Part shown: one piece after another, positions 1,832 to 64,000 of the stretch
Layout of the letters: every line of letters starts with the position of its first letter
Position numbering within the stretch: the first letter of the stretch is position 1
Source: Escherichia coli
GTDB lineage: Bacteria; Pseudomonadota; Gammaproteobacteria; Enterobacterales; Enterobacteriaceae
Direction: 5' to 3' (one strand)
DNA length: 64,000 nucleotides
Assembly: GCF_041248615.1 (NCBI RefSeq)
Contig: NZ_CP158426.1
Position numbers and translations under genes: made by a program
Notes under the pieces: model-generated
Databases searched by the model: none
Told to the model about the DNA's origin: nothing
Seen by the model: only the letters and a program-made list of their open reading frames with translations

Positions 1832-3679
1832 TTACCTGATTAATTGTTCCGCTTTCGATACGATTTGCGAGCTGGATCGCGCAGGCAGATCATAATTGTA
1901 AATATCTGTACGATACTGGGTACGACCATCTGCACCAACAAATGCCGTCAGGTAGTAGAGATTTACCGGAATCGACTGCCGAATATTGACGTAACGCGTA
2001 TCACCCTGCTTCAGCGCATCAGAAATACGTTTGTCATTCCAGCCTGCATCCTGCAACAGCATATTCGCCAGATCGGAAGCTTTATTCACTCGTACACAGC
2101 CTGAGCTCAATGCGCGTGTATCACGCTTGAACAGATTGTGGTTCGGCGTGTCATGCAAATAAATGGCCTCTGAACTCGGCATATTGAATTTATAGCGCCC
2201 CAGCGAGTTCCGCGGGCCTGGAGCCTGCTGGAAGCGAAACGGTAAATTTGAGGCCGTGATTGTAGACCAGTCAACCTGCCATGGGTCAATCGCTTCTCTG
2301 CTGTTCCAGCCGCGCATCACCGTATAGCCATGGCTTTCGAGATATCCCGGATCGTTGCGCACTTTCGGCAGAATATCTTTGCGTGCCAGAGTTGGTGGTA
2401 CGTTCCACGGCGGGTTTACCACTACGTTGTTAAGTGCACTACTCATCATCGGCGTTTTGCGATCGGGGCGACCGACAATGACTCGCGAATCCAGCACCTG
2501 ATTGCCGTTCTGATAGTAGACCAGCGAATAGGCTGGAATGTTAACCATAATCCCGGTAGAAAGCTCTGTTGGCAGCAAGCGCAATCGCTGGATGTTGAGT
2601 GCCAACACGCCAGCACGCTGGGCGGGCGTTACGTTTAACCAGTCACGCGTTGCCGGGCCAATAGCGCCATCTGCTCCCAATCCTTGCCATGCCTGAAAAC
2701 GTTTAACGGCTTCCACCAGTTCATTATCGTAGGCGGCACGAACGGCAGGCGCAGGTTTACTACGAGACGTCGTTTGCTTGTCCATCGGCTTAGTTTCTGC
2801 TGTTTCAACAGTAACAGCGGATGGGCTGACTACCGTGTCAGTTGGCGTGTCATCGCCAGGTAGAGTAATTTTCGGCCCCCCGTCCAACATGCCTGTACGC
2901 TGCAATATTTCGCGCAACGCCGGTACGTCGTTACTCCACTGCCCTGGGCGCAACGTTGCTTTGCCGGTCAGTTGGGGCCACGGTTTGGTGTCACTGAGTA
3001 AGGCCAGTAACGATTCATGCATCGCTGCATATTGCGGATGCTGCGGTGCCAGACCTGCAACAAACGTCGGCAATTGACCTTTATCCAGCGCCAGTTGCCA
3101 TTGGTTAATCACCGAGAGCGGCGGCGTTGAAAGCGCATAAGGTTTACTGCTATATAGCCAGCGAGTGCCTTTGACCGGAATATTTGCAATGAAATGGAGA
3201 TAGCCCATCATCGCATCAGAGAGCACGACGTCGCGTGCCATCCCGTTAACACCAGGATCGGTCAGTAACTCTACCCATTTATTAAACTGCGGCTGGAAAC
3301 CGGCAATCGCCACCTCTGCCAGCTGTTGCTGGAAGGCTTTAACAGCATCACGGTTTTCCCACATGGGTTGCATATCGCGTGCGGCATACAACAGTTGAAG
3401 CTGGTTAAGATAAACCGGCTTATAACCTGCGGGTAATTGAGATTCGATTTGCGTGCGGGCTTTTTCTGCCGCACCTTCAGGCAATGGCTGGATCCCCGCC
3501 ATTATTGCCGTGGCTTGCGCCTGCGGCAGTGCCTCGCCCTGTTCACTGACAGCCACCGGGCTGTCGCCAGGGATTACTTCAGGCTCATCGGCCTGCGCAT
3601 TGAACAGTGGAGCGAATGTTACGGCCAGGCACAAACTGATTGCCGACAGCCGACGACCACACATCATATTAAGCAACAT
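1832..3679 (-). CDS. ldtD: L,D-transpeptidase LdtD (YcbB)
   Basis: 615 aa ORF with signal peptide, recognised as YcbB; synteny. Confidence 0.85.
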
Positions 3680-18141: not shown

Positions 18142-20406
18142 CTACCCGTTATCCACTGGCACGCCAAACCACTGATGATACCAACGAGGTAAAATTTGCT
18201 CCCTGAGGCTGCTAATCCGCCAGCCTTGCGCTGAAAAATTGACCGTTATTTGCCCCTGATGAGGAGTATCAAGCCACGTATAACCCTGTTGTTGATAGCG
18301 ATGTTTAACTTTGTTAGAGGGCAGTCTCCATGCGTTATAGCGCGATGCCGATGCGAGTGCCACTTTTCCATTCACTCGCTGAATTAATGGCAACGATGAT
18401 GAGGTATTACTGCCATGGTGAGGTACCTGAAGCAATGTTGCCTGCACTTGCTGCCAGTAACGGCTTAGCATCTTTTGTTCAGCGGGAGCTTCAATATCAC
18501 CGGTTAGAAGAATGCTATTCGTCCCGTCATCAATCTTAACCACACAGGAATGGTTATTTCCTTTATCGTTGCTACCTTGTAAAGGCCAGTGCGCGCTGAA
18601 ACGCAATCCTTGCCATTGCCACGCTTCGCCACGCACACAGGGCTGATGATGTTCCCAGTTTAACGGACTTCTGATCCATAACATCGGCCATGTATGCAAT
18701 ATTGAGTCCAGCCCTCCCCGGTGATCCAGATGTTCATGACTCAGAATAACGCCTTCCGGTTCAAGATTATGCCAGTGGAGCCAGGGGATAATCAGTTGTT
18801 GCCCACTATCCCCTTCGGGCCAGGCCAGTCCCGTGTCATAGAGAATCGCTTTGCCGTTTCGCGCAATGACCATTGCCAGCCCTTGCCCGACATCAAGCAT
18901 GTACACTTGCCACTCGTCAGGTCGAGGTTTTTGCCACAGCGGCCAGCACATCAGCAAGCCTACAGCCACACACATTGCTGGCAACGTTCGCCAGGCGTTT
19001 AATCGCCATACCACCAGTAAGAACCATGGGGAAAATGTTAGCCATTGCCAACGTTCAGCAATGTTGATCCACCCTTCCGGCAAACTCTTTAACCCCCAGA
19101 AAAGTAAAGCCAAAGACCGGTCGGCAAGAAACCATAACCCTTGCTCCAGAATTAACGGCCCGCTTAAATGCGCAACCATCGCGGCGAGGATCAACGGAAC
19201 CGTGATAAATGTCACCAAGGGAATTGCAAAAAGATTCGCAATAAACGAGGTCAGACTAATGCCATGAAATATGACGATTTGCACGGGCATAAGCAGGAGG
19301 GTGATTCCCAGTTGCAGATGGATGAGGGAAACAACCGCACGCAATACCGGCGGCAGCTGCCACTCAGGACAGGGAAACCACTGATACCAAAAAATCAGTG
19401 CCGCGACCGCAGCGGCAGAGAGCCATAAACTTTGCGAGAGAATGGCAACAGGATCCATCAGCAAAATTGCCGCCAGACAACATATCCATACATCCCAGCC
19501 ACTCCACTGTCGCCCACTTAACTTAAGCATTCCCCACGTAGCAAGCGCCACCACGGTACGAAATGCAGGAGGTTGCATTCCCGTCAGCCAGGCATAAAAA
19601 GCAGCACAGCAGATTCCGCCAATTAATGGCATTTGCCAGTGGATCCAGCGCCCAGGCAGAAAAATTTGTCCACTGCGAATGAGTCCGGCAGCCAGCAACG
19701 CTGCAAAAGCGATGTGCAATCCCGATATCGCCATTAAATGCGCCGTTCCAGTATCACGCATGATATTTTTGATTTCTTTGGGGACGGATAACCGTTCCCC
19801 CATACCTAAACCAAGAATAACCGCGTTCCACATATAGGGTTGCAGCGTTGTTTGTAGTGACGCCAGATACTGTGCACGCAGGCTACAATTCGGTTCAATG
19901 ACACTTGCCTGCAGAAAGCGGCCGGTGAGCGGCTGATGCTGGGCAATGGCATAACGCTGGCTATCAAAGCCGCCATCATTAAGTTGACCATGAACTGCAC
20001 GAACTTTGAGTTTCATTGACCACAGTTGTCCAGCACAAACCGCTTGCGGAAGATATTCGCCATACAGCACGAGGCCTGGCGCAGGGAATATACGTCGACC
20101 TTGTAGATGAGTAATTTGACCGTAATGAGTGGTCATACCGTCAGTAGCAGTGATCTCAACAATTGCATCCTGCGTCGCGCCAGTTAAGGTTTCTCCTGCC
20201 CACAAAATTTGCTTTGCTGCTAATATGCCCCAAACGAAAAACAGCAACGTCAGCGCGATATAACGGACAGTTTTAAAAGGGATAAATACCAGTACGCAGG
20301 CGAAGACGGTCAGAGACGCAAGGGTTAATGTCCCAGGCAATTGGGGCAAAATCAGCAACGGAAAAATTCCGCAAATTATGCATACGCCGACTGTCGTTAT
20401 TTTCAT
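18142..20406 (-). CDS. ycaI: ComEC/Rec2-family inner membrane protein YcaI
   Basis: ORF 18142-20484; start placed at MKITTVGVCI; polytopic membrane region plus C-terminal metallo-beta-lactamase-like domain. Confidence 0.8.
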   Translation of the reverse strand: MKITTVGVCIICGIFPLLILPQLPGTLTLASLTVFACVLVFIPFKTVRYIALTLLFFVWGILAAKQILWAGETLTGATQDAIVEITATDGMTTHYGQITHLQGRRIFPAPGLVLYGEYLPQAVCAGQLWSMKLKVRAVHGQLNDGGFDSQRYAIAQHQPLTGRFLQASVIEPNCSLRAQYLASLQTTLQPYMWNAVILGLGMGERLSVPKEIKNIMRDTGTAHLMAISGLHIAFAALLAAGLIRSGQIFLPGRWIHWQMPLIGGICCAAFYAWLTGMQPPAFRTVVALATWGMLKLSGRQWSGWDVWICCLAAILLMDPVAILSQSLWLSAAAVAALIFWYQWFPCPEWQLPPVLRAVVSLIHLQLGITLLLMPVQIVIFHGISLTSFIANLFAIPLVTFITVPLILAAMVAHLSGPLILEQGLWFLADRSLALLFWGLKSLPEGWINIAERWQWLTFSPWFLLVVWRLNAWRTLPAMCVAVGLLMCWPLWQKPRPDEWQVYMLDVGQGLAMVIARNGKAILYDTGLAWPEGDSGQQLIIPWLHWHNLEPEGVILSHEHLDHRGGLDSILHTWPMLWIRSPLNWEHHQPCVRGEAWQWQGLRFSAHWPLQGSNDKGNNHSCVVKIDDGTNSILLTGDIEAPAEQKMLSRYWQQVQATLLQVPHHGSNTSSSLPLIQRVNGKVALASASRYNAWRLPSNKVKHRYQQQGYTWLDTPHQGQITVNFSAQGWRISSLREQILPRWYHQWFGVPVDNG

Positions 20407-20562
20407 GCACCCCTCCCTGTTTATGGAAAGTGTGCAACTTTGTTGAGCGGTTGTCTGGTGGGAATTTTGCGTTCCCCGAGGCACGTTCAGAAGAATTTAA
20501 CGAGAGGGTGAAAACTGCTCAAAACTCTGCGAGGCAGCTTCCAGTTCCAGATTAGAGAAATG

Positions 20563-20592
20563 AAAAAAGCACCCGACAGGTGCTTTTCTCGC
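20563..20592 (-). terminator. rho-independent terminator after ihfB
   Basis: Minus strand gcacctgtcgggtgc stem followed by TTTTTT. Confidence 0.7.
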
Positions 20593-20612
20593 GTTCAAGT
20601 TTGAGTAAAAAC

Positions 20613-20897
20613 TTAACCGTAAATATTGGCGCGATCGCGCAGTTCTTTACCTGGTTTAAAGTGAGGAACGTATTTTCCTTCCAGTTCTACTTTATCGCCA
20701 GTCTTCGGATTACGTCCGGTACGTGGTGCGCGGTAGTGCAAAGAGAAACTGCCGAAACCGCGGATTTCAATACGCTCGCCCTGCGCAAGAGTCGAGGCCA
20801 TATGCTCCAGCATCTCTTTTACTGCATCTTCAACCGTCTTGGCGGGAATGTGCGATTGCTGGGTGGCAAGTCTTTCTATCAATTCTGACTTGGTCAT
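20613..20897 (-). CDS. ihfB: integration host factor beta subunit
   Basis: 94 aa [23 protein letters not shown], recognised as IhfB. Confidence 0.95.
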
Positions 20898-21056
20898 GAT
20901 TCCTCCGGTTCCTTAAAGGCAAATTAAGCGGCTGCTGTTGCTGCATTGATTAAGGGCGGCCGTAGCCGCCCTTAGTGCTTGATTACAGGACGAAACCTGC
21001 AATCTGTCAAGTAAACTCAACAAACTTCGGAATAAAAATCCCGAAGAGTCAGAGAA

Positions 21057-22730
21057 TTACTCGCCTTTAGCTGCTTTGAAAGCTTCAGCCATTGCGTTGT
21101 TGGAGAAGTTTGCATCTTCCTGTTTGTTAACAGTTGCGATTGCATCTTTCTCGTCAGCTTCGTCTTTCGCACGAACAGACAGGCTGATTGCGCGGTTTTT
21201 ACGATCAACGCCGGTGAATTTAGCTTCAACTTCGTCGCCAACGCTCAGAACCAGGGTAGCGTCTTCAACGCGGTCACGGGATGCTTCAGAAGCACGCAGG
21301 TAACCTTCAACGCCGTCAGCCAGTTCTACGGTTGCGCCTTTAGCGTCAACTGCAGTTACTTTACCGGTTACGATAGCGCCTTTCTTGTTCAGAGCAACCC
21401 AGTTGTTGAACGGATCTTCTGCGAGCTGTTTAACGCCCAGGGAGATACGTTCACGTTCTGCGTCAACCTGCAGAACAACTGCAGCGATTTCGTCGCCTTT
21501 TTTGTATTCACGAACTGCTTCTTCGCCTGCAACGTTCCAGGAGATGTCAGACAGGTGAACCAGGCCGTCGATGCCGCCGTCCAGGCCGATGAAGATACCG
21601 AAGTCAGTGATAGACTTGATTTTACCTTCAACACGGTCACCCTTGTTGTGGGTTTCCGCGAACTGCTGCCACGGGTTAGCTTTGCACTGTTTCAGACCCA
21701 GGGAGATACGACGACGTTCTTCGTCGATATCCAGAACCATAACTTCCACTACATCGCCAACGTTAACAACTTTGGACGGGTGGATGTTTTTGTTGGTCCA
21801 ATCCATTTCGGAAACGTGTACCAGGCCTTCAACGCCTTCTTCGATTTCAACGAAGCAGCCGTAGTCGGTCAGGTTGGTCACGCGACCAGTCAGTTTGGTA
21901 CCTTCCGGATAACGTTTAGCGATAGCTACCCACGGATCTTCGCCCAGCTGTTTCAGGCCCAGGGATACACGGGTACGTTCGCGGTCGAACTTCAGCACTT
22001 TAACAGTGATTTCATCGCCAACGTTGACGATTTCGCTCGGATGCTTAACGCGTTTCCAGGCCATGTCAGTGATGTGCAGCAGGCCGTCAACGCCGCCCAG
22101 ATCAACGAATGCACCGTAGTCAGTGAGGTTCTTAACGATACCTTTAACTTCCATGCCTTCCTGCAGGTTTTCCAGCAGCTGATCGCGCTCTGCGCTGTTT
22201 TCGGATTCGATAACGGCACGACGAGAAACAACAACGTTGTTGCGCTTCTGATCCAGCTTGATTACTTTGAATTCAAGCTCTTTGCCTTCCAGGTGCAGAG
22301 TGTCACGCACCGGACGAACGTCTACCAGAGAACCTGGCAGGAACGCACGAATACCGTTCAGCTCAACAGTGAAGCCGCCCTTAACTTTGCCGTTGATAAC
22401 ACCGGTAACAGTTTCAGCATCTTCGTAAGCTTTTTCCAGCGTGATCCAGGCTTCGTGACGTTTAGCTTTCTCACGGGACAGCAGAGTTTCACCGAAGCCG
22501 TCTTCTACTGCGTCCAGAGCAACGTCAACTTCGTCACCTACCTGGATTTCCAGCTCGCCCTGGGCGTTTTTGAACTGCTCAGCCGGGATGGCGGACTCAG
22601 ATTTCAGACCAGCGTCAACCAGTACTACGTCTTTGTCGATAGCAACAACAACGCCACGAACGATAGAACCCGGGCGGGTTTCGATTTCTTTTAAGGACTC
22701 TTCAAAGAGTTGAGCAAAAGATTCAGTCAT
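21057..22730 (-). CDS. rpsA: 30S ribosomal protein S1
   Basis: 557 aa ORF with repeated S1 domains, recognised as RpsA. Confidence 0.96.
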
Positions 22731-22840
22731 GTTTAATCTTCAGGTTTATATTTAACGTCCACCTGGCTCCATGCCGGATGGGGTTGTTTAACATACCCGC
22801 TGTCATTCCATTGCAACGGGGGTACTGCAAATTCGGTCGC

Positions 22841-23524
22841 TTATGCGAGAGCCAATTTCTGGCGCGCGTATTGTAGCGCTTTTTCAATCACTTGCTCAAT
22901 GCTTAAGGTGGTGGAATCCAACACTAAAGCATCGGCTGCCGGAACCAGTGGCGCTACCGCTCGGTTACGATCGCGGTCGTCGCGTTCTTTGATCTCGGCC
23001 AAAAGGCGCTCAAAGTTAACACTAAAGCCCTTCTCCTGCAACTGTAGCATGCGGCGATGCGCACGTTCTTCCGAGGAGGCGTCAAGGAAAATTTTCACTG
23101 GCGCATCAGGGAATACCACCGTTCCCATATCGCGGCCATCGGCAATCAAGCCTGGTAATTCGCGAAACGCGCGTTGGCGACGCAATAATGCTTCACGAAC
23201 GCGTGGGAATGCCGCGACTTGTGAAGCAGCATTCGCCACTTCCTGAGTACGAATTTCGCCGCTGACATCTTCCCCTTCGAGGATCACTTCCAGATTGCCA
23301 TTGGTCGACACAAAACGTACATCCAGATGGGATGCCAGCGGCACCAGCGCATCTTCCGATGCAACATCAACATGGTGATGTAATGCCGCCAGTGCCAGTA
23401 CGCGATAAATTGCACCCGAGTCCAGCAGATGCCATTGCAACGCTTCCGCCATAGCCTTACACAAGGTGCCTTTCCCTGCACCGCTTGGGCCATCAATGGT
23501 AATAACCGGGGCAATTGCCGTCAT
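22841..23524 (-). CDS. cmk: cytidylate kinase
   Basis: 227 aa ORF with P-loop GPSGAGKGT. Confidence 0.92.
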
Positions 23525-24629: not shown

Positions 24630-25913
24630 TCAGGCTGCCTGGCTAATCCGCGCCAGCTGCTCGAAATAATCCGGAAATGTTTTGGCCGTACATTTGGGAT
24701 CAAGAATCGTCACTGGTGTATCTGACAACGCCACCAGCGAGAAACACATCGCCATCCGGTGATCATTGTATGTCGCGATCTCGGCAAAGTTCAGTTTTTC
24801 CGGTGGAGTGATACGAATGTAATCGTGCCCCTCTTCTACTTCCGCACCAACTTTACGCAGTTCTGTTGCCATCGCAAACAGGCGATCGGTCTCTTTAACA
24901 CGCCAGTTATAGATATTGCGCAGCGTGGTGGTGCCTTTTGCAAATAACGCCGCCGTGGCAATGGTCATCGCCGCATCGGGAATATGGTTCATATCCATAT
25001 CAATAGCGTTCAGTTCACCACGCGTGCAGGAAATATAATCGTCGCCCCAGCAAATAGTCGCGCCCATTTTTTCCAGCACATCAGCAAAGCGAATATCACC
25101 CTGCATACTGTTGCGTCCAATGCCGGTCACTTTTACAGTGCCGCCTCTGATTGCTGCTGCTGCCAGGAAGTAAGAAGCCGAAGATGCATCGCCTTCGACC
25201 AAATAAGTACCCGGAGACTGATAAGACTGCCCGCCTTTTACGACAAATTGTTGATAGTGCTGATTTTCAATTTCAACACCAAACGTCTTCATCAGATTGA
25301 GTGTGATGTCGATATAAGGTTTAGAAACCAGATCGCCTTTAATACGAATAACCGTATCTTCCGGCGCAAGAGGCGCAGTCATTAATAGTGCGGTGAGGAA
25401 CTGGCTGGAAACGGAGCCATCAACGTCAACGTTGCCGCCAGTAAAGCTGCCCTGTAAACGCAATGGCGGATAATTTTCTTGTTCCAGGTAAGTGATCTTC
25501 GCCCCGCCCAGGCGCAGCGCATCCACCAGATGACCAATGGGGCGTTCTTTCATACGCGGTTCACCGGTCAGCACAATATCATTGCTACCCAGACAAAGAG
25601 CTGCCGCCAGCGGACGCATTGCCGTTCCGGCGTTACCGAGGAACAACTCCAGGGCACTTTTTGCGTGTAATGGACCGCCGTTACCGATGATTTCGCAACG
25701 CGTACGATCAGCTGAAAGCGTATAGCTTACCCCTAATGCCTTTAACGCATTAAGCATATAGCGAACATCATCGCTATCCAGCAGATTAGTTAATACTGTT
25801 TTACCGTGTGCCAAAGCCGCCAGCAATAAAGCGCGGTTAGAAACGCTCTTGGAACCGGGCAGATTAATAGTGCCATCGACACGGACGATGGGTTGTAACG
25901 TCAGGGATTCCAT
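24630..25913 (-). CDS. aroA: 3-phosphoshikimate 1-carboxyvinyltransferase (EPSP synthase)
   Basis: 427 aa [38 protein letters not shown], recognised as AroA. Confidence 0.95.
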
Positions 25914-53170: not shown

Positions 53171-53534
53171 GCGTGCACGAAAAAAGGCCTTTTTCTGCGC
53201 GCAGGTGACGGGGGAACAGCCCGCGTTTCAGGGGGTAAATAGCATTCCCTGAACGATGTTGCAGCGACACAACAGAATGGCTGTATTTCTCACGCTGAGC
53301 GTAAAAAAGACGTAAAAGCTTGATTTGATGGGGGTGAAAGATAAGGCCGTCAAAATCGCACTGAGGCAGCGAGAATATGTCGTCAGAGTTGCGGGGTTGC
53401 GTAAGCATCCGCCCGGCGATGATGGCTACAAGGTTGGAGATGTTGTGAAATTATCTGAAGGAATAACCAGCTTGCAGGAGAACCCGGGCAAAGTCAGAAT
53501 AGCGGCAGGCATCAACTCAAAAGAGGATAATGTC

Positions 53535-53634
53535 ATGAGCCACTTTAATGATTTATGCCAGATCAATCGTGAAGCTGAAGAAAAACGCGCTGAGGCAGCT
53601 CAAATTTTGCGGGATGAAGCGGCAAGGCTGATTG
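53535..53634 (+). pseudogene. 5' portion of a phage cargo gene interrupted by the IS21-family element
   Basis: RBS aagagga 7 nt upstream of ATG at 53535; the reading frame continues in phase with ORF at 56221-56625 once the IS is removed. Confidence 0.4.
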
Positions 53635-53829
53635 ATTGCGTATTTTCATGAAAGGAGATCACTCAATAACTTCCATCGAGATCGGGTAATAACATTTGAA
53701 CAGATCGCTGAATAACATCGATGGAGATCACTTTTGACTCATTTTGTTATTCAGTGATCTCCATCAATGTTATTGGAACTTCACAGGTGTGTTGATCTGT
53801 ATCTTTTGCCATTCCGGTAAAGGATACCT

Positions 53830-55371
53830 ATGCCAACAGTTCCAATTTCTATGAGAAAACTTAAAGAAATTCTTAGGCTTAAATACGGTGTTGGACTCAG
53901 CCATCGACAAATTGGTCGTAGTCTTGCAATCTCCCCTTCCGTTGTATCCAGATATGCTAATCGGGCGGCTCAACTTGGCATAAAGCAGTGGCCCTTACCT
54001 ACAGGATGGGATGATACAAAACTAAAACATGCGTTCCTTCAGACCCAGGTTAAGATGAAGAAGCACTCTCTGCCTGACTGGGCTACAGTACACCGGGAAC
54101 TGCGTAATAAATGCGTGACGCTGCAGCTACTCTGGGAAGAATACTGTGAGCGTAATCCAGGCGGTTTTTACAGCTATAACCATTACTGCCGGATGTACCG
54201 TGAATGGCTCAAAACCACTTCACCATCAATGCGTCAGGTACATAAAGCTGGCGAAAAACTTTTCGTTGATTACTGTGGACCTACCGTTGGCGTTACCGAC
54301 CCTGAGACCGGAGAAATAAGAACTGCTCAGGTCATCGTAGCTGTTCTCGGGGCATCAAGTTACACATGGGCAGAGGCCACCTGGTCTCAGCAGCTTGAAG
54401 ACTGGGTGATGAGTCATGTTCGCTGCTTCCAGTGGTTGGGTGGCGTTCCTGAACTTGTTGTTCCGGACAATCTGAAAAGCGCCACATCCAGGGCATGTAA
54501 GTATGATCCTGACGTTAACCCTACCTACCAGCAGATGCTTGAGCATTATAATGTCGCAGTTTTGCCTGCGCGGCCACGTAAACCGAAAGATAAAGCCAAA
54601 GCTGAAGTTGGCGTTCAGGTTGTTGAACGCTGGATCATGGCCCGAATCAGGCATGAGATCTTCTACAGCCTTGCATCGCTTAATCAGCGCATTCGGGAGT
54701 TGCTGGAAAGACTGAATAACAAAATAATGCAGAAGTTGGGTTATTCACGTGCAGAACTCTTCATCCAGCTTGATAAACCCGCACTGAAGCCTCTTCCTGA
54801 AGCCAGTTACAGTTACACCCTGGTGAAGAAAGTCAGAGTTCATGCCGATTACCACGTGGAAATCGACAAACATTACTACTCGGTTCCATGTTCGCTGTTA
54901 GGCCAGCAACTGGAAGCATGGATCTCCGGAGAACTGGTAAGACTCTTCAATCAGGGGCAGGAGGTTGCTGTGCACCCGCGCAAGCGTACTTATGGCTACA
55001 GTACCCGCAACGAGCACATGCCTGAAGCTCATCGACAGCATGCCACCTGGACGCCAGAGCGTCTTCTGGAATGGGCGGGGCACATAGGCAGTGAAACTCA
55101 TAGTTATGTGCTTCATATACTGAACTCTCGTCCACATCCGGAACAAAGCTATCGCTTCTGCCTTGGACTCCTGAACCTTCATAAAAAATACAGTAAAGCC
55201 AGACTTAATGCAGCATGTGCAAGAGCTCTGAAAACAAAGGTATGGCGTCTGTCAGGTATTAAATCGATCCTGGAAAAAGGTCTGGATAAACAACCTGTTC
55301 AGGATCCAAAACCAGATCTGTTATCCACGATGGAACACGAAAACGTACGCGGCAGTGAGTATTACCACTGA
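53830..55371 (+). CDS. istA: IS21-family transposase IstA
   Basis: 513 aa ORF; N-terminal HTH (LSHRQIGRSLAISPSVVSRY) and integrase-like core. Confidence 0.85.
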   Translation: MPTVPISMRKLKEILRLKYGVGLSHRQIGRSLAISPSVVSRYANRAAQLGIKQWPLPTGWDDTKLKHAFLQTQVKMKKHSLPDWATVHRELRNKCVTLQLLWEEYCERNPGGFYSYNHYCRMYREWLKTTSPSMRQVHKAGEKLFVDYCGPTVGVTDPETGEIRTAQVIVAVLGASSYTWAEATWSQQLEDWVMSHVRCFQWLGGVPELVVPDNLKSATSRACKYDPDVNPTYQQMLEHYNVAVLPARPRKPKDKAKAEVGVQVVERWIMARIRHEIFYSLASLNQRIRELLERLNNKIMQKLGYSRAELFIQLDKPALKPLPEASYSYTLVKKVRVHADYHVEIDKHYYSVPCSLLGQQLEAWISGELVRLFNQGQEVAVHPRKRTYGYSTRNEHMPEAHRQHATWTPERLLEWAGHIGSETHSYVLHILNSRPHPEQSYRFCLGLLNLHKKYSKARLNAACARALKTKVWRLSGIKSILEKGLDKQPVQDPKPDLLSTMEHENVRGSEYYH

Positions 55372-55382
55372 TACGGGATCCA

Positions 55383-56132
55383 ATGATGAATCATCTTTAC
55401 GAACAACTGACCGCACTTAAACTCACCGGCTTCCGTGATGCGCTTAAAAAGCAACTTGCTCAGCCGGGCACATACCAGGAGCTGGGCTTCGAAGAACGCC
55501 TGTCATTACTGACAGCAGAAGAACTAACCTGCCGTGAAAACAGGAAGGCAGAGCGTCTGATCAAACATGCACGGTTCAGACTTAATGCTGAGTTATCAAA
55601 GCTGGATTATCGTAACAATAGAGGGCTGGACAGGGCCCTCATCCGTTCACTCAGTCAGGGAAACTGGTTAACCCTGAAACAAAATATTTTACTGACCGGG
55701 GCCACCGGCAGCGGTAAAACGTTCCTGGCATGTGCACTTGGTCATAATGCCTGCCGACAGGGATACAAGGTCTACTATTATCGCCTTAAAGCGCTGATGG
55801 AACAGTGCTATCAGGGGCATGCTGATGGAAGATACAGCAAACTTTTGACCAGGCTGAATAATAGCGATCTGCTGCTTCTGGATGACTGGGGGCTGGAACC
55901 TCTCTCATCAGAACAGCGTAGCGACCTGCTGGAAATAGTGGATCTGATGTACCAACGAGGCTCAATCATCGTAGTGAGCCAGTTGCCGGTGGAAAACTGG
56001 TACAAAATGATCGGAGACTCCACACATGCGGATGCCATCCTAGATCGACTGGTTCATGGCAGTATCAAGATCGAACTTAAAGGAGAATCAATGCGGAAAA
56101 TACAATCTCCGTTGACCGAAGGAGATCAGTGA
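55383..56132 (+). CDS. istB: IS21-family helper ATPase IstB
   Basis: 249 aa ORF with Walker A GATGSGKT and Walker B LLLLDDWG. Confidence 0.85.
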   Translation: MMNHLYEQLTALKLTGFRDALKKQLAQPGTYQELGFEERLSLLTAEELTCRENRKAERLIKHARFRLNAELSKLDYRNNRGLDRALIRSLSQGNWLTLKQNILLTGATGSGKTFLACALGHNACRQGYKVYYYRLKALMEQCYQGHADGRYSKLLTRLNNSDLLLLDDWGLEPLSSEQRSDLLEIVDLMYQRGSIIVVSQLPVENWYKMIGDSTHADAILDRLVHGSIKIELKGESMRKIQSPLTEGDQ

Positions 56133-56220
56133 AGGTAATTTAAAAACGGTTCTGTGAAAGTGACACGAACCGATCTCCATCGATGTTACTCACCGATCTC
56201 CTTCACGGTAATACGCAATT

Positions 56221-56625
56221 GATTTCTATGAAGAATGGCTGGGGCTTCCATCCATGTACTGGGAAGACGATGATGGCGACCTGCACCGCTACGTGGAGAC
56301 AGGCTTGCCATGTAAGACAGCGGCGGATTTTAGTCCTCTTTCAGTCCACAATATCGCATCTGCACCAGACAATATTTTCCGCATGGCCGTGCGAACCTGG
56401 GTTAAGTCATCTGACAGCAGCTACCCGGTAAGCGTGGTTATTGCACTTGAATTATATTCAGTAGATGCGGAACGGGTGTCTCTGAGAGTCCGGGTGGAAG
56501 ACGATATTTCTGTTCGCGTATTTATCAATAAACCCAGCGAAGAAGCCTGGGGCGATGTTGTTATGCACATGAAAAAGCACATCGCTAATCACCTGAAAAA
56601 GCGAGCGCCATCAGCACTTCGTTAA
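56221..56625 (+). pseudogene. 3' portion of the IS-interrupted phage cargo gene
   Basis: Open frame from the IS right junction (DFYEEWLGLPSMYWEDDDGDLHRY...) to stop at 56625, in phase with the upstream fragment. Confidence 0.4.
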
Positions 56626-56691
56626 GCAGAGCTGGAGAGTCGGGGCATAAATTTTTTATGCCCCGGCGAAGCAGCAGACAAGCGAAGCGCG

Positions 56692-57747
56692 TCAGGATAT
56701 GGGCTGGGTGTCTAACAGTGCGTAAGGGTTAAAACGGATCACCTCTTCGCCCAGCCAGTCGTTGACGTGTTTCATTGCTTCCATGACGGGCATCAGTTCG
56801 TTAATGGCAAACACACGGGCTGCCTTCTCCACATCCCCGAATGACCCCTTCTCACCCGGCATGGCCCCCATCAGCTGCGGCGGTACACGGTGCACGGACA
56901 GCACATCATCACGCGATGCAGCCTTGACGTTCATGAACTCATCCTTTGCGGTGATTTGCTGAAACGGCAAAATCTGTACGCCATCCTTACCACCTCCCGC
57001 CGCGTGGATGAGCAGATTTTTAAACGCCCCGCCACCACGCGCGCTTTGCAGTGTTTCCCGCAGTTTTTCCATGCTTTCACGGTCAACCTGCGCCGCACCG
57101 ATGTAGACAATACAGCCCGCGTGTGAGCCGTTATCGTAGTAGAGCTTGCGGAAGATATCGGCGGAATGTGACAGGCTGGCAGACAGCAGGCCGCCCAGGT
57201 AATCCGGCATCCCGTAAATCTCCTGGTTGATATCAGGATTCATCAGGTGGCATATCGTCCCCTCACGAAAGCGGTACTCTTCCTGTCCTTCCTGTATATA
57301 CCACCATGATTTCATATCGCTGCCACGTCGCATGTATTTCGCCAGCGCCCGGCGCAGGGCCAGCGGTTCGCCAAGCATGTTGCGCCGCAGCTCAAGACAG
57401 GCATTACCGAACACAAACCAGTCCATCGCCACCCCGGCGAACTCCTGGCGGGACAGCAGAGGATGTGGAATATAGCAGCCCAGCAGCACATTACGTTTGA
57501 AGCTGAGCGCCGACTGGTGCCAGGACGTCTGGCGGGCAGCCCGTGCCAGTCCGTACCAGTCAACGGGCGTTTCAAACCACCGCCCGTTGTCGGCGCAGTA
57601 CATGCTGTCCAGCAGGTCGGCCCCTGACAGCCGGTAAGGTCCTTCAAACGTGAAGGCACTCAGTGTCGGGTCGCTTCGCAGGGAATCCGCAAGGCTGCCC
57701 TGCGCTGCGCGGGCGTTCGTACGTCGTTGTTTATTTTTTCTGCTCAT
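56692..57747 (-). CDS. Q: phage portal protein, P2 gpQ-like
   Basis: 351 aa ORF, leftward, stop overlapping the downstream terminase gene; position and size match P2 Q. Confidence 0.8.
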   Translation of the reverse strand: MSRKNKQRRTNARAAQGSLADSLRSDPTLSAFTFEGPYRLSGADLLDSMYCADNGRWFETPVDWYGLARAARQTSWHQSALSFKRNVLLGCYIPHPLLSRQEFAGVAMDWFVFGNACLELRRNMLGEPLALRRALAKYMRRGSDMKSWWYIQEGQEEYRFREGTICHLMNPDINQEIYGMPDYLGGLLSASLSHSADIFRKLYYDNGSHAGCIVYIGAAQVDRESMEKLRETLQSARGGGAFKNLLIHAAGGGKDGVQILPFQQITAKDEFMNVKAASRDDVLSVHRVPPQLMGAMPGEKGSFGDVEKAARVFAINELMPVMEAMKHVNDWLGEEVIRFNPYALLDTQPIS

Positions 57748-59498
57748 CAGAACTCCGTAACACTGAAGGGGGCGGCATCATGTTCACCGCCGACAGGTTC
57801 GTTGATAACGGCCAGCATGGTGGCCCATGCAAGATCGCCATGGCTTACGCCTCTTGCGCGATCTGTTTCGTAGGTGATAAATCCGGCCTGCGTTTTTGTT
57901 TTGCGTACCGCGTTAAAGGCGCTCACCAGTTCGCGCTCGCTGCGGTCGTACTCCCACCGCCCGGCGCGCATGAGCTGCAGCATCTTCAGAACCAGCGTGC
58001 GCTTTGATGACAGGGTGAAGGTGTAGGGAATGGCTGCCGGAAAAAAGCGCTTCACAATCTGATACACCGCATCCCCGTGACCGCCGGTTACGTCAATACC
58101 GATATGCTCAACGTTATAGCGAAAGGTGAACTCTTCAATCACCTTCGCCTGCGCCTCAAACTCCAGCCCCTGCACCCGCCGCGTCTCCACGGTGCGAAAA
58201 CGCCCGCCCGGTACGGCTGGCGGCACCACCACGACAACCGCCCCGCTGTCACCGTTCCCGCTACTGCCGTTGGCGTCGTACCCAATCCACACAGGGCGGT
58301 TCCCCATCGGACGCGGTGCAAACGGCTTCCAGTCCGGCCACTCGTCGTATCCGTCAACACCGCAGCCAATCAGGATATTCAGGTTAAATGCCGATTCCCC
58401 TTCGCGAGCAAATTCACACATGTAGAGATTGCGGAACTCGTCTTCAGTGTTATTGCGCCGGATTTTGTCAATGTTGGTTAACGTCCATCCCTGACTGACC
58501 ACATCTTCCAGCGTCACAATTTGCCGCCAGATATAGTCAGGACAGATAAGGCCGTTATGAAGCGCATTCCAGCTCACATCAAAATGCTGACGTTTATGAG
58601 TACGAAGCCCTTCATTCCAGTGATCGCCGTTCCAGTATGCATACGCCTCATGTGTTTCACTTGATGGCGTGGAAAAATAGGTACACCGCAAACCATCCAG
58701 CGTTGCCATAGCAGCAGCCACCTTGCGCAGCTCTGCGAAACGCCCCGTCCAGAAAAACTCATCAAAATACAGATTCCCTGTGTACGCTTGCGCGGTGGCC
58801 GCAGAAGTGCCGAGAAAATGCAGCTCTGCACCGTTGGAGAGGATGACTTTATCGCCCCCTTTCAGTTCCACATCAACTTCAGATGCAGCCTTCTGAATAA
58901 TGCTTTTAAACTGGAGCGCCTGACGACGAGACGCAGACAAAAAAATCTGGTTACGCTGGTAAGGTTGTGCCACATCGTCACGCAGCGCCATCAGCAGCGC
59001 TTCCTGCGCAAAATACCAGGTCGCCCCAATCTGGCGGGATTTCAGGATCATCCTGTCAGTAATTCCGGCACGCTCACAGGCACCGATAGCATCAAGCCAT
59101 TTGCGCTGGTGTCCGGCCAGCCTGTCGGTAATTTTTTCCCGCAGCGCCGCGATCTGTTCCGGCGTGAAATGATTTTTGTGTTTTTTCGCCCGGCCTTTCT
59201 TTCCTGTTGCCGTCTCATCCGGCAGACCGTCATGCAGCTTTTTAAGCTGACGGGTCAGCAAATCAATTTCCTTAAAGTCCCCGCCTGTTTTATTCTGTTT
59301 TTCCGTGAGCTGAATGAGTCGCGCATCCATGGACTGCGTGACACGCTGAACCGGGGGCGTCTCATCCCACTGGTCGCGTTTTTTCCACGAATGGATCGTG
59401 TTCTGGTTGATACCCATAAGGCGGGAAATTTCCGCAACAGGGTAACCCTGCCAGTACAGCTGGCGTGCCCGCTGGCGAACAAATGTATCCTGAATCAT
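57747..59498 (-). CDS. P: terminase large (ATPase) subunit, P2 gpP-like
   Basis: 583 aa ORF, leftward, divergent from O; size and position match P2 P. Confidence 0.8.
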   Translation of the reverse strand: MIQDTFVRQRARQLYWQGYPVAEISRLMGINQNTIHSWKKRDQWDETPPVQRVTQSMDARLIQLTEKQNKTGGDFKEIDLLTRQLKKLHDGLPDETATGKKGRAKKHKNHFTPEQIAALREKITDRLAGHQRKWLDAIGACERAGITDRMILKSRQIGATWYFAQEALLMALRDDVAQPYQRNQIFLSASRRQALQFKSIIQKAASEVDVELKGGDKVILSNGAELHFLGTSAATAQAYTGNLYFDEFFWTGRFAELRKVAAAMATLDGLRCTYFSTPSSETHEAYAYWNGDHWNEGLRTHKRQHFDVSWNALHNGLICPDYIWRQIVTLEDVVSQGWTLTNIDKIRRNNTEDEFRNLYMCEFAREGESAFNLNILIGCGVDGYDEWPDWKPFAPRPMGNRPVWIGYDANGSSGNGDSGAVVVVVPPAVPGGRFRTVETRRVQGLEFEAQAKVIEEFTFRYNVEHIGIDVTGGHGDAVYQIVKRFFPAAIPYTFTLSSKRTLVLKMLQLMRAGRWEYDRSERELVSAFNAVRKTKTQAGFITYETDRARGVSHGDLAWATMLAVINEPVGGEHDAAPFSVTEF

Positions 59499-59569
59499 TT
59501 CTCCCCCTCATGTGATTCAGGCAGTTTACTCACCCCTTACAGGCCTCCTGCCATGCCCGGTGTTGTCGG

Positions 59570-59593
59570 CATTCGCTTACAACAAACGCACTT
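59570..59593 (+). promoter_or_regulatory. candidate late-promoter activator site (TGT-N12-ACA dyad)
   Basis: TGTTGTcggcattcgcttACAACA in the P/O divergent intergenic region, about 60 bp upstream of the O start; matches the Ogr/Delta-type element of P2 late promoters. Confidence 0.55.
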
Positions 59594-59652
59594 TGTCTGT
59601 CCCTGCCCCGTTTTGCCATCATGAGACAAACGATCATCACGAGGGCCCGACA

Positions 59653-60489
59653 ATGCCTGAACAGAAAAAAACATCCCGTAAAACATTCCGCGTGGCCGTT
59701 TCCGGTCCCACCGCAGACGGTCGCGAAATCAGTGCCGCAGATTTGCGCGCGGCGGCCAGTAACTTCAACCCTGAGATTTACGGCGCACGCGTGAACGTGG
59801 AGCACTGGCTTTCACCGGTTCCGTCCAGTGAATTTTCCGCCATGGGTGATGTGACGGCACTGAGCACAGAAGAAATCACCGAAGGTCCGCTGGTCGGTCG
59901 TACTGCGCTGTATGCGGAAATCGAACCCACCGACCGCATGAAAAATCTGGTCTCCCGGGGTAAGAAAATTTACTCCAGTATTGAGCTGGCACGAAATTTC
60001 ACCCCTACGGGCACCCCGTATCTTATTGGCCTTGCCATGACAGACACCCCGGCAAGCATCGGCACGGAGCGTCTTCAGTTCGCCCTGCAGCAGCGCCGTT
60101 CGGTCATGACCTTCAATAATCAGCAGACGGAAGCACCGATGTTCTCTGACGCCATTGAGGCTGAAGTGATCGAACTGACGGAGCGCCGCAGCGAGGAAGG
60201 TGCGCAGTGGCTTAACCGCGTGATGAACATGATTGGGCGAGGACGCAGGGCTGACGACACCCGGTTCTCCCGCATTCATGACGCCGTTGAGGGGATAGCC
60301 TCATCGCATGCCGACCTTCTCGACCGCTTCAGTGCACTGGAATCGCGCCATCAGGCAGACAGACAGAAAATCGCCACCCTGTCCACTGAGCTGGCAGAGC
60401 TGAAAAACAGACTGCGCGGACTGGACGCTGATCAGGAAAGTCGTTTTACGGCAACCGGCGGGCAGTCCAGACAACTGGCTGACTACTGA
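59653..60489 (+). CDS. O: capsid scaffolding protein, P2 gpO-like
   Basis: ORF 59512-60489; start placed at MPEQKKTSRK with RBS; 278 aa; first rightward late gene. Confidence 0.75.
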   Translation: MPEQKKTSRKTFRVAVSGPTADGREISAADLRAAASNFNPEIYGARVNVEHWLSPVPSSEFSAMGDVTALSTEEITEGPLVGRTALYAEIEPTDRMKNLVSRGKKIYSSIELARNFTPTGTPYLIGLAMTDTPASIGTERLQFALQQRRSVMTFNNQQTEAPMFSDAIEAEVIELTERRSEEGAQWLNRVMNMIGRGRRADDTRFSRIHDAVEGIASSHADLLDRFSALESRHQADRQKIATLSTELAELKNRLRGLDADQESRFTATGGQSRQLADY

Positions 60490-60517
60490 CAGAAATAACC
60501 ACAAGAGGTGATAACCG

Positions 60518-61657
60518 ATGAATCTGATCATGAGCGATGCCGCGCGGGCCGAGCTTTTTGCTTACCAGGCACAACAGGCGGAGATGAATAACATCACGAT
60601 ATCTGCGCTCTCCTCCCGCTTTTCGGTACAGCCGGCAGTGCAGCAGAGATTTGAAAACGCATCAAAGGAAAGCCATGATTTTCTTCAGAAAGCCAACAGC
60701 ATTGGTGTGACAGAGCAGAAAGGTGAAAAGGTACTCCTGGACACCACCGGGCCGGTTGCGCGCACGAACAGCAGTTATGACGGTACAAATCGTCGTAACC
60801 CGCTGAATGTGGTGGACATGAAAGCGCGACGCTATGAGTGCGAGCAGGTGAACTACGACACCTTCATCTCCTACCCTCAGCTTGACATGTGGGCCGGACA
60901 CCCTGACTTCCAGCTGCGTGTGAGTCGCCAGATTGCCAGACAGGTGGCACTTGATCGCATCATGACAGGTTTTAACGGTACGCACCATGCGGAAGTCTCG
61001 GATATAAAAAAACACCCGCGACTTGAGGACGTCAATAAGGGGTGGCTGCAGGATATCAGGGACCAGGCCCCGCAACGCGTCATGAAAGACGTGATGCTGA
61101 CTGCGCGCAATATGGACAATTCGGTGGCATACACAGGCAGATACGCCAATCCCGATGCACTGGTCCAGGATGCACGCTCATCCCTGCTTGACGAATGGCA
61201 CAAGGACGCAGACGACCTCGTTGTCATCATGGGGCGAAACCTCTTTAACTCCCTGCGCCTGCCGGTCCTGAACAGTATCAGCATGCAGAATGCGAATGCC
61301 GAACTGCTTGCCGGACAGCTCATTGTGTCAACGCGGACCATTGGCGGCCTTGATGTGTACCTTGCGCCATTTTTCCCGGCTCAGTCAATGCTCATCACCT
61401 CATTCAGCAACCTGTCGGTTTACTGGCAGAAGGGGTCCATGCGTCGTCTCATGAAGGATGAGCCCGAATACAACCGTATCGCCATCTATCAGTCCGTTAA
61501 CGACTGCTATGTGGTTGAGGACCATGGTAAGTGCGCACTGATTGAGAATATCAGCTTTGCCACATATGACCATGACGCGCCGGACTGGTACCGGGAGGGC
61601 ATAAAAGCACTGTCAGCGCAGGCTGAAGACAAGGATGCAGGGGAAGAGGAGGATTAA
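60518..61657 (+). CDS. N: major capsid protein, P2 gpN-like
   Basis: 379 aa ORF following O. Confidence 0.75.
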   Translation: MNLIMSDAARAELFAYQAQQAEMNNITISALSSRFSVQPAVQQRFENASKESHDFLQKANSIGVTEQKGEKVLLDTTGPVARTNSSYDGTNRRNPLNVVDMKARRYECEQVNYDTFISYPQLDMWAGHPDFQLRVSRQIARQVALDRIMTGFNGTHHAEVSDIKKHPRLEDVNKGWLQDIRDQAPQRVMKDVMLTARNMDNSVAYTGRYANPDALVQDARSSLLDEWHKDADDLVVIMGRNLFNSLRLPVLNSISMQNANAELLAGQLIVSTRTIGGLDVYLAPFFPAQSMLITSFSNLSVYWQKGSMRRLMKDEPEYNRIAIYQSVNDCYVVEDHGKCALIENISFATYDHDAPDWYREGIKALSAQAEDKDAGEEED

Positions 61658-61659
61658 CC

Positions 61660-62436
61660 ATGCTGACACCGGCACAGGCTCATTTCCAGCACGTGATGGC
61701 TTTACGGGCAGGAACGGCAGCAGAAAACGAGGATATCGTGGCCCGCACGGCTCATGAGCAGGTCCTTCACCGTCTGCGCCTGGCACAGCAACGCATAAAG
61801 GGCGTCCAGGCAAAAGCGGCAAAGGCCGCGCTCAAGCGTGAAATGCTGCCGGGTTTTGCAGGCTGGATAGACGGCACGCTGGAAGCCGACGGCGGACAGC
61901 AGGATGAGGTGATAGCCACACTCATGGTGTGGGCCGTGGACTGTGGCGACCTGGCGCTTGCACTGCGCATCGGGGATTATGTGGTTCGCCACAACCTCAC
62001 GATGCCTGACAACTTCGGGCGTACGGCAGCCACGGTACTGACCGAGGAAATCTGCAACCCTGTTCTGACACAGGCCGGAACGGATGCACACGCCGATTTG
62101 TCCGGCTACATCGAACCGCTGGACACCCTCTGGCAAATTGTCGCGAACCGGGACATGCCCGATGAGGTCCGCGCCAAGCTGTGCAAGGCATGCGCCTTTG
62201 CCCGTCGTGGCCTGACCGATGCCGACAGCATGGCGGTGAGTCTGAAGCTGTTCCGTGAGGCAATGCACCTTAACCCGAATGCGGGGGTAAAACGTGAGAT
62301 TGCCACGCTTTCACGGGCCCTGAAAAAGGCCGGACAGGATGAAGCCGCTGCCGCACAGGAGCCTGCGGCACAGAAAGATACAACCAGAGAACAGACCACG
62401 ACGCCGAAGGCGAAAGCGAAGGCGAAACGTGGTTAA
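61660..62436 (+). CDS. M: terminase small (endonuclease) subunit, P2 gpM-like
   Basis: 258 aa ORF following N. Confidence 0.7.
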   Translation: MLTPAQAHFQHVMALRAGTAAENEDIVARTAHEQVLHRLRLAQQRIKGVQAKAAKAALKREMLPGFAGWIDGTLEADGGQQDEVIATLMVWAVDCGDLALALRIGDYVVRHNLTMPDNFGRTAATVLTEEICNPVLTQAGTDAHADLSGYIEPLDTLWQIVANRDMPDEVRAKLCKACAFARRGLTDADSMAVSLKLFREAMHLNPNAGVKREIATLSRALKKAGQDEAAAAQEPAAQKDTTREQTTTPKAKAKAKRG

Positions 62437-62538
62437 CGGCTGACCCCGTCAGAAGGCGGCGTGCCGGGCGTTCCGGTTACGGTTTTCCGTTCCCCTTACA
62501 CCCGGCACCCACCGCCTTTTTTTCTGAAGGAGCGATTT

Positions 62539-63033
62539 ATGAGCATGGTCGCAAGACCGGAAGCCGCCCCTGCACGGGACGATATCCCCGACACCGACGA
62601 CGGCGACGCCACCATCACCGCCGGGGCATTCTGGCCGGAGATTGTGCTGCGGGAGCTGCGCCTTGCAGTACGCCTGCCGGGCCGCATCACCTCCACACGT
62701 CTGGCGCACGTTGCCACGGGAGCCGTGGCTCACGTCACGCGGGAGCTGGAAGAGTGGCAGAAGGCGCAGTCTGCCGCAGGGTTCAGCATCCTCGCAGAAG
62801 TGCCTGCCGCCACCATCAACGGTGAGAGCGTCAACGTATGGCATTACCGCAACGCCGTCTACAGCGCCACCCGCGCCCTGATTCTGGAACGCTGGCGGGA
62901 TGTGGACACCACTGATAAAGGGGACCGCCGGGCTGACGCACTGGATGAGCAGATGGAAGACTTATGGCGCGATGTGCGCTGGTCCGTGGCAGATATTCTG
63001 GGTCGCCCCCGTCTTTTTGCGGAGCTGGTGTGA
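62539..63033 (+). CDS. L: head completion/stabilisation protein, P2 gpL-like
   Basis: ORF 62461-63033; start placed at MSMVARPEAA with RBS aggag; 164 aa. Confidence 0.7.
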   Translation: MSMVARPEAAPARDDIPDTDDGDATITAGAFWPEIVLRELRLAVRLPGRITSTRLAHVATGAVAHVTRELEEWQKAQSAAGFSILAEVPAATINGESVNVWHYRNAVYSATRALILERWRDVDTTDKGDRRADALDEQMEDLWRDVRWSVADILGRPRLFAELV

Positions 63034-63230
63034 TGAAAGTGAGGGCACTCCAGGGGGATACCGTCGATTTACTCTGTTTCCGGCACTACGGCACCACGCA
63101 GGGGGTGACCGCACAGGTACTTGATGCCAATCCAGGGCTCTGCCGCCAGGTAATTCTGGAAGCGGGACAGGAGGTGGAAATGCCGGAGCCGGAAAGGAAA
63201 CAGCAACGCGAAAAGGTAAAGCTATGGTGA
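63033..63230 (+). CDS. X: small tail protein, P2 gpX-like
   Basis: 65 aa from ATG overlapping L stop; MKVRALQGDTVDLLCFRHYG resembles P2 X. Confidence 0.7.
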   Translation: MKVRALQGDTVDLLCFRHYGTTQGVTAQVLDANPGLCRQVILEAGQEVEMPEPERKQQREKVKLW

Positions 63231-63514
63231 CGGGATTTTTTCAGCGCGTCAGTGACTGGATCACCTTCTGGGCGTCAGTGACGGCAACAACCATTGGTGT
63301 TATGACCATCAGCGAAAAAATTGCGCTGGCCGGGCTGCTTCTGGGGTCACTTTCCGCCATCCATGCCTGGTGCCACCGCAGGCGTACGGAGCAGGCAATG
63401 AAGCGCCGCAATGACCTTATCGCCCGCATCCTGGCACGTTCAGAAAACCGCGAGCTTCACGACGGTGAGAGACGGGCACTGGACAGCGTGAGACAGGACG
63501 GAGAAGAGCGGTGA
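63224..63514 (+). CDS. Y: holin, P2 gpY-like
   Basis: 96 aa ORF with hydrophobic segments (WITFWASVTATTIGVMTI, ALAGLLLGSLSAI) and charged C-terminus; position before lysozyme. Confidence 0.7.
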   Translation: MVTGFFQRVSDWITFWASVTATTIGVMTISEKIALAGLLLGSLSAIHAWCHRRRTEQAMKRRNDLIARILARSENRELHDGERRALDSVRQDGEER

Positions 63515-64000
63515 AACTGCCGGTAAAACGTTATGCGGTGGCGGCCATTGTGGCGCTGGGCGTCTCCATGGCACCCGGTGAACTGAGAACCTCACGGGAA
63601 GCACAGATAAAAATCGCCACCCGGGAAGAGTGCCGGGCGACACCGTACCGTGATATTGCAGGAGTAATGACCGTGGGATGTGGTTCAACAGGGGGCGTGG
63701 AGAACCGGGTTTACGGAGAAAAGGAGGTGGCCCGCCGCTGGGTGAATGACCTGCGGCACGCGGAAAACTGTATCAACCAGAACTTCAGCGGTGCCGCCAT
63801 GCCCCAGTCCGCCTTTGAGGCGATGACCGACGCGGCGTTCAACGTCGGCTGTACCGGCCTGATGTGGTACCGGGACAGGAGCGGCAACCGGCAGCGCACC
63901 ACCATCTGGAAGCACGCACAGGCGCACCGCTGGGTGGCGATGTGCGGGAGACTGACCGATTTTGTCAACAGTGGCGGACGCCGCTCACAGGGGCTGGTTA
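63511..64000 (+). CDS. K: endolysin (lysozyme family, possible signal-anchor-release type), 3' end outside window
   Basis: GTG start overlapping Y stop; N-terminal hydrophobic AAIVALGVSMAPG then EECRATPYRD...GVMTVGCGSTGG lysozyme-like catalytic region; no stop before window end. Confidence 0.65.
   Translation, partial: MKLPVKRYAVAAIVALGVSMAPGELRTSREAQIKIATREECRATPYRDIAGVMTVGCGSTGGVENRVYGEKEVARRWVNDLRHAENCINQNFSGAAMPQSAFEAMTDAAFNVGCTGLMWYRDRSGNRQRTTIWKHAQAHRWVAMCGRLTDFVNSGGRRSQGLV

Follow-up and report, generated by a model that had tools for sequence, protein, structure and literature searches.

In phage P2, genes Q and P are transcribed leftward and genes O, N, M and L rightward, and between the two groups the GenBank record (NC_001895) has only one annotated site of this kind, "activator binding site; pO, pP promoters" (3057..3087). 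The mapped transcript starts of P (3016, minus strand) and O (3127, plus strand) are both 55.5 bp from the centre of the dyad in this site, which reads TGTTGT-GTCAGTGATAAG-CCATCC and is, therefore, imperfect in its right half. Likewise, the record of phage 186 (NC_001317 3798..3817) has only one site for the B protein, annotated for "activation of pV and p12 promoters" and situated between these two divergent promoters. In phage Smp131, from the distant host Stenotrophomonas, promoters PP' and PO' were assigned bioinformatically to the same 18 nucleotides, with the structure TGT-N12-ACA, a dyad symmetry that is quoted as the late-promoter consensus of the P2 family; Smp131 also codes for an Ogr-like protein with the motif CX2CX22CX4C (PMC3931495). 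Because the assignments in P2, 186 and Smp131 agree, one dyad common to the divergent pair can be considered the rule in this family, a rule whose basis is the GenBank annotations of P2 and 186 together with PMC3931495.

The prophage and its divergent late region

The window, that is, the whole stretch of 64,000 nt of Escherichia coli DNA analysed here, consists of ordinary E. coli chromosome from position 1 to 42500 (aspC, mukFEB, msbA, rpsA, aroA, pflB, dmsABC) and contains part of a P2-family prophage integrated between dmsA and serS. Positions 53332-64000 are 100 % identical to the genome of E. coli NRZ14408 (NZ_LT599825.1). The phage late region is also 99.9 % identical to that of strain LH50-c, compared with ca. 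98.2 % for the chromosome, indicating that the prophage is more conserved between both strains than the flanking DNA. The nearest sequenced phages are P88 and other members of Xuanwuvirus, with around 77 % DNA identity over the region. The gene order of the prophage is int, C, cox ... A ... (cos) Q, P / O, N, M, L, X ... S, V, W, J, I, H, G / U, T, E, FII, FI (inverted) / D, ogr. Genes S and V overlap, which leaves no space for PV as a promoter of its own. The block from FI to U is inverted with respect to P2, so that FI and D also diverge and the gap that separates them is a second one of this type.

The original prediction placed a divergent late-promoter region between the leftward P/Q operon and the rightward O operon. 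The annotation bears this out, since the gap between P and O corresponds exactly to the predicted interval (Table 1). Within it, the genes face away from each other as they do in P2, and an intergenic region of 154-160 bp with one dyad is also found in P88 and in phages and prophages of E. coli, Citrobacter, Klebsiella and Enterobacter belonging to Xuanwuvirus and other Peduoviridae, together with a conserved block, TGCCATCAT.

Table 1. Features of the P-O region, in positions of the window; promoter elements and transcription starts are predictions.
Feature	Coordinates	Strand	Basis and remarks
P, large subunit of the terminase; heads the leftward P-Q operon	57747..59498	-	583 aa; Pfam Terminase_6N/6C/5 (gpP-like Terminase_5); RefSeq annotation
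P-O intergenic region, divergent late control region	59499..59652	.	154 bp; ORFs, Pfam and RefSeq annotation of the identical genome
Shine-Dalgarno of P, GAGGGGGAG	59501..59509	-	P ATG at 59498; read from the sequence
Predicted PP transcription start	59516..59517	-	ca. 55-56 bp from dyad centre; placed by P2 geometry
Predicted PP -10-like hexamer, TAAACT	59523..59528	-	47 bp from dyad centre
Perfect dyad TGTTGT-N12-ACAACA, TGTTGTCGGCATTCGCTTACAACA	59561-59584	.	Centre between 59572/59573; proposed single Ogr-type activator site
Inner core TGT-N12-ACA	59564-59581	.	Equals the published P2 late-promoter consensus
Predicted weak -35-like element of PO, TTGTCT	59593..59598	+	4/6 consensus matches, 18-bp spacer; below the threshold of the consensus scan
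Predicted PO -10-like hexamer, CATCAT	59617..59622	+	47 bp from dyad centre; inside the conserved block
Predicted PO transcription start	59628..59630	+	Placed by P2 geometry
Shine-Dalgarno of O, GAGGG	59641..59645	+	O ATG at 59653; read from the sequence
O, capsid scaffold/protease; heads the rightward late operon	59653..60489	+	278 aa; Pfam Phage_GPO, E = 3.9e-87

Two other traits of the prophage bear on its state. An IS21-family element, annotated as ISEc12, is situated 2.5 kb to the left, at positions 53638-56217 (IstA, 513 aa, 53830..55371; IstB, 249 aa, 55383..56132), where it interrupts a hypothetical gene of the prophage located between the replication region and cos/portal, and it is flanked by a target duplication of ca. 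7 bp (ATTGATT). This element is missing from the otherwise 99.9 % identical prophage of LH50-c and, of 5,426 complete E. coli genomes, a single one contains its junction. Additionally, the tape-measure gene is annotated as a pseudogene lacking its C-terminus both in NRZ14408 (L090, positions 19314-21509) and in LH50-c (L002, positions 20762-22957), in both cases adjoined by ca. 1.1 kb devoid of annotation. The pseudogene and the IS insertion suggest that the prophage may be inactive or defective and, consequently, that the dyad may not be in use in this strain.

The perfect dyad, its second copy and the cognate activator

The P-O gap contains the clean TGTTGT-N12-ACAACA that had been described upstream of O, and no other exact match exists in the 64 kb of the window; in 100 shuffles that preserved the dinucleotides, no exact match appeared. 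With spacers of 11 to 13 nt, it is also the single match in the gap having up to three mismatches, apart from overlapping or spacer-shifted readings of the same dyad. The bare core TGT-N12-ACA is not enriched in the window, with 14 occurrences found and 16.4 expected, and what makes the dyad significant is thus the complete 6+6 palindrome, along with where it is situated and the fact that it recurs. Moreover, no P2 late promoter has an exact TGT-N12-ACA, which makes the core alone a poor detector of these sites.

A second exact copy, TGTTGTCTCCTGACAGCGACAACA, occurs where the tail genes FI (sheath) and D diverge, in a gap of 161 bp, and these two copies are the only ones in the 31 kb examined of NRZ14408. 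Mononucleotide shuffles of the 22-kb late region contained a mean of 0.0005 exact copies; the dyad is, then, far beyond chance. P88 has corresponding sites at the same two places, with one and two mismatches, and P88-like phages in general share with the lineage of the window the second site between the inverted FI-U block and D.

The comparison with the P2 promoter sequences, proposed as a check of the original prediction, was also favourable: a MAFFT alignment pairs the TGTTGT of the window with the TGTTGT of the annotated pO/pP activator site of P2, and both phages have one dyad in the gap, with this same left half-site and a 12-bp spacer. The site of P2 (TGTTGT-N12-CCATCC) is nevertheless imperfect, as opposed to the 6+6 palindrome of the window, and the flanks outside the motifs can barely be aligned. 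Phage 186, which belongs to a different genus (Eganvirus) and uses activator B, also has one activator site between its divergent terminase/scaffold promoters p12/pV, TGTTGT-N12-CCA, although with an imperfect right half-site. As for closer relatives, 77 related viral contigs provided 34 distinct upstream sequences for comparison; in 32 of these the best match to the dyad had at most two mismatches and was situated 80.5-82.5 bp from the O ATG, whereas the next-best matches had three or four mismatches.

Variation among these sites was not the same in both halves. In P88-like relatives the P-proximal half-site is degenerate (TGTTCT, GGTCT, GGTTGT), while the O-proximal half and its flank, ACAACAAAA, are invariant; P2 and 186 show the reverse pattern, with a perfect TGTTGT and an O-proximal half that reads CCA. 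Among the lineages compared, only that of the window has both half-sites perfect.

A tblastn search for an ogr gene within the 64-kb window gave a best E value of 0.17. An ogr homologue had been expected at the far end of the prophage, beyond the window, and we located it there in the genome of NRZ14408: WP_029400762.1 (83 aa) is coded directly downstream of D, at a distance of 14.5 kb from the end of the window. The protein matches Pfam Ogr_Delta (PF04606) with E = 4.9e-14 and a score of 52.4 bits (cut-off, 26.3) and, over 53 residues, shares 42 % identity with P2 Ogr, so that an activator of the Ogr/Delta family is encoded here as in P2. Its cysteine motif is CX2C-X24-CX4C, with a loop two residues longer than the X22 of P2, and it has a Leu at the position of P2 Tyr42; because of both differences, its contact with RNA polymerase could differ from that of P2.

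The gap between D and ogr is just 43 bp (L090, positions 25128-25170), and a simple consensus scan found no separate promoter upstream of ogr, a gene that has its own annotated promoter in P2. After ogr there is a terminator-like hairpin (L090, positions 25540-25559), as in P2. We also observed that each of the leftward late genes, P (window positions 59529-59537, minus strand) and FI (L002, positions 25384-25392, minus strand), is preceded on its transcribed strand by the 9-mer AGGGGTGAG. The distance of this 9-mer from the dyad differs, with offsets of 24-32 after the site for P and 5-13 for FI, and its occurrence may be due to chance.

The dyad itself, its uniqueness, its recurrence in the FI-D gap, the alignment with P2 and the existence of a cognate ogr were computed or observed directly. 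Taken with the annotations of P2 and 186, they make it highly probable that the dyad is one site common to both promoters for the Ogr-type late activator of the prophage, as occurs in those two phages. The dyad is, then, real but ordinary; most likely, it is the usual site from which P2-family phages activate late genes in both directions, although in this case unusually perfect.

The predicted promoters and alternative readings of the gap

No consensus sigma-70 promoter was found in a scan of positions 59400-59750, and the best hexamers match 4 of 6 positions, which fits with activator-dependent promoters. We compared promoters lined up on the dyad centre and read in the direction of transcription, with offsets counted after the site. 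The candidate -10-like hexamers of the window, TAAACT for PP and CATCAT for PO, both occupy offsets 33-38, and those of P2, TAGCCT for PP (7 nt upstream of the mapped P start) and GAAACT for PO, both occupy offsets 32-37. The hexamers are thus 47 bp to either side of the dyad centre in the window versus 46 bp in P2, with a register offset of 1 nt, and the starts of PP and PO are predicted at 55-57 bp from the centre. The hexamer of PP reads TAATCT in the relatives and, together with the block TGCCATCAT, is conserved in this form across four further Peduoviridae genera.

The predicted core of PO, with its -35-like element at one end and its start at the other, is spanned by an inverted repeat of 7 bp, TTTGTCT / AGACAAA (59592-59598 and 59624-59630). 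This repeat, which P88 does not conserve, may have arisen by chance.

The geometry on the O side could also be different, with the same Ogr site serving both promoters and PO starting near position 59618, within TGCCATCATG, which would leave the dyad at around -45 for PO and at -55 for PP. The MAFFT alignment indeed pairs TGCCATCATG with the P2 sequence TGCCGACATG, which contains the O start, by means of a 10-bp gap, and in P88 and phiT5282H the corresponding -10 position is occupied by TACGCT, a reasonable hexamer. However, the window has no -10-like hexamer there, only CCCCGT/CCCGTT. CATCAT, on the contrary, is kept in four of five related lineages, including P88, phiT5282H and Klebsiella 3LV2017, and reads GATGAT in the fifth, ST16-OXA48phi5.4; it mirrors the hexamer of PP, at a distance that matches that of P2, and it is preceded 18 bp upstream by a -35-like TTG, likewise kept in four of the five lineages. 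A start near 59618 appears, in consequence, improbable, and we retain the symmetric arrangement, with the palindrome centred ca. 55 bp upstream of both predicted starts.

The original prediction also contemplated a degenerate second dyad for the P promoter and, from the existence of a single clear dyad, asymmetric control of the operons; in this model the dyad would serve PO alone and PP would use the degenerate site at positions 59511-59533. The candidate string, tgtgattcaggcagtttactcac, is present at these positions, starts with TGT and allows some TGT/CAC symmetry to be read. Its status as a dyad, by contrast, is at the level of chance: six of the 12 specified bases are mismatched with a spacer of 11 or 12 nt (five to six over spacers of 11-13 nt), ca. 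5.8 % of all positions in the window match the dyad equally well, and there is no ACA 12 bp after its TGT. The string is not conserved in relatives. Its centre, which is ca. 24 bp away from the start codon of P, falls near -5 of the predicted PP, over the -10 and start of this promoter, for which reason it cannot be an upstream activator site. It is also partly explained by a 9-bp inverted repeat at the ribosome binding site of P. Finally, the expectation that P should have a dyad of its own finds no counterpart in the records of P2 and 186, which annotate one site per divergent pair; a single dyad is the normal state in these phages. The half-sites of the main dyad are unequally conserved in P88-like relatives, and a directional difference in strength is therefore conceivable, but we rejected a separate P-specific dyad as a chance-level match in the wrong position, without a counterpart in P2 and 186, and consider asymmetric control through it very improbable.

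The 9-bp inverted repeat is perfect and formed by CCTGAATCA (59489-59497, overlapping the P start codon) and TGATTCAGG (59513-59521, part of tgtgattcaggcagtttactcac), with the P Shine-Dalgarno in the loop. As RNA, it folds into a hairpin of -10.9 kcal/mol (z = -1.8) that could occlude the P start codon in the mRNA, although its relevance is uncertain because the predicted PP start lies inside the upstream arm. P88 keeps just a bulged 7-bp version of this repeat.

That the palindrome is not an Ogr site at all, occurring by chance or forming an RNA or DNA hairpin or an operator for Cox, the C repressor or IHF, is scarcely credible: the segment folds as RNA into a small hairpin of -12 kcal/mol, but this is unexceptional (z = -1.9; equalled by 9 of 200 shuffles), is situated upstream of the two predicted transcripts and matches no Rfam family, whereas two exact copies exist where chance predicts practically none, each in a divergent late intergenic region, and the dyad corresponds by position to the activator sites that are annotated in P2 and 186. 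No terminator-like site was found in the P-O gap. A match to Rfam c4-2 (E = 0.75, 18 bits versus a gathering score of 41) was dismissed; it is inside O and on the opposite strand.

Proposed activation from one site and the late regulon

[quoted passage not shown] Late promoters of the P2 family are characterised by a dyad at ca. -55 on which the activator leaves a footprint, and by a dependence on the activator and on this domain that is seen in the rpoA109 phenotype (alpha L290H). For the dyad of the prophage, the functional steps are transferred from P2 and 186, and it is from these phages that we infer the transcription starts, the -10 hexamers, Ogr binding and the contact with the polymerase. 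Ogr made late, or a delta protein supplied by a satellite, would bind the palindrome, and this one site would serve two back-to-back, activator-dependent sigma-70 promoters, PP for P-Q, leftward, and PO for O-N-M-L and onward, rightward. Since the palindrome is centred at a similar distance upstream of both predicted starts, the bound activator would be placed alike with respect to RNA polymerase at either promoter, and from around -55 it could recruit or stimulate the polymerase, through the alpha C-terminal domain, at two weak promoters. Late in infection, or after induction, the packaging and portal genes (P-Q) and the head, lysis and tail genes (O onward) would in this way be switched on together from one site. 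The FI-D site would likewise drive the tail-sheath operon and D-ogr, placing ogr under positive feedback.

A broader proposal, which is speculative and rather unlikely as a whole, is that the late regulon has been condensed to two bidirectional regions (P-Q versus O...G, and FI...U versus D-ogr) with one perfect palindrome each, without PV and with ogr inside an activated operon and hence under positive feedback, and that the quality of the half-sites sets the ratio of terminase/portal to capsid transcripts or leads to mutually exclusive firing of the promoters. One symmetric site faces two promoters, and in the relatives the P-proximal half alone has decayed, so half-site quality could tune the output of P versus that of O. 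If this were true, there would be real asymmetric control, encoded inside the single dyad.

The established model of P2 and 186 is unchallenged by these findings, whose main value is for annotation, as they correct the expectation of one Ogr site per divergent late promoter. The perfect palindrome, being present twice, is also a clean substrate for studies of DNA recognition by the Ogr family and of how one site can serve two promoters. At least 26 complete E. coli genomes, of which many come from poultry, carry the prophage with an identity of 99 % or higher, and its late-gene switch is now located.
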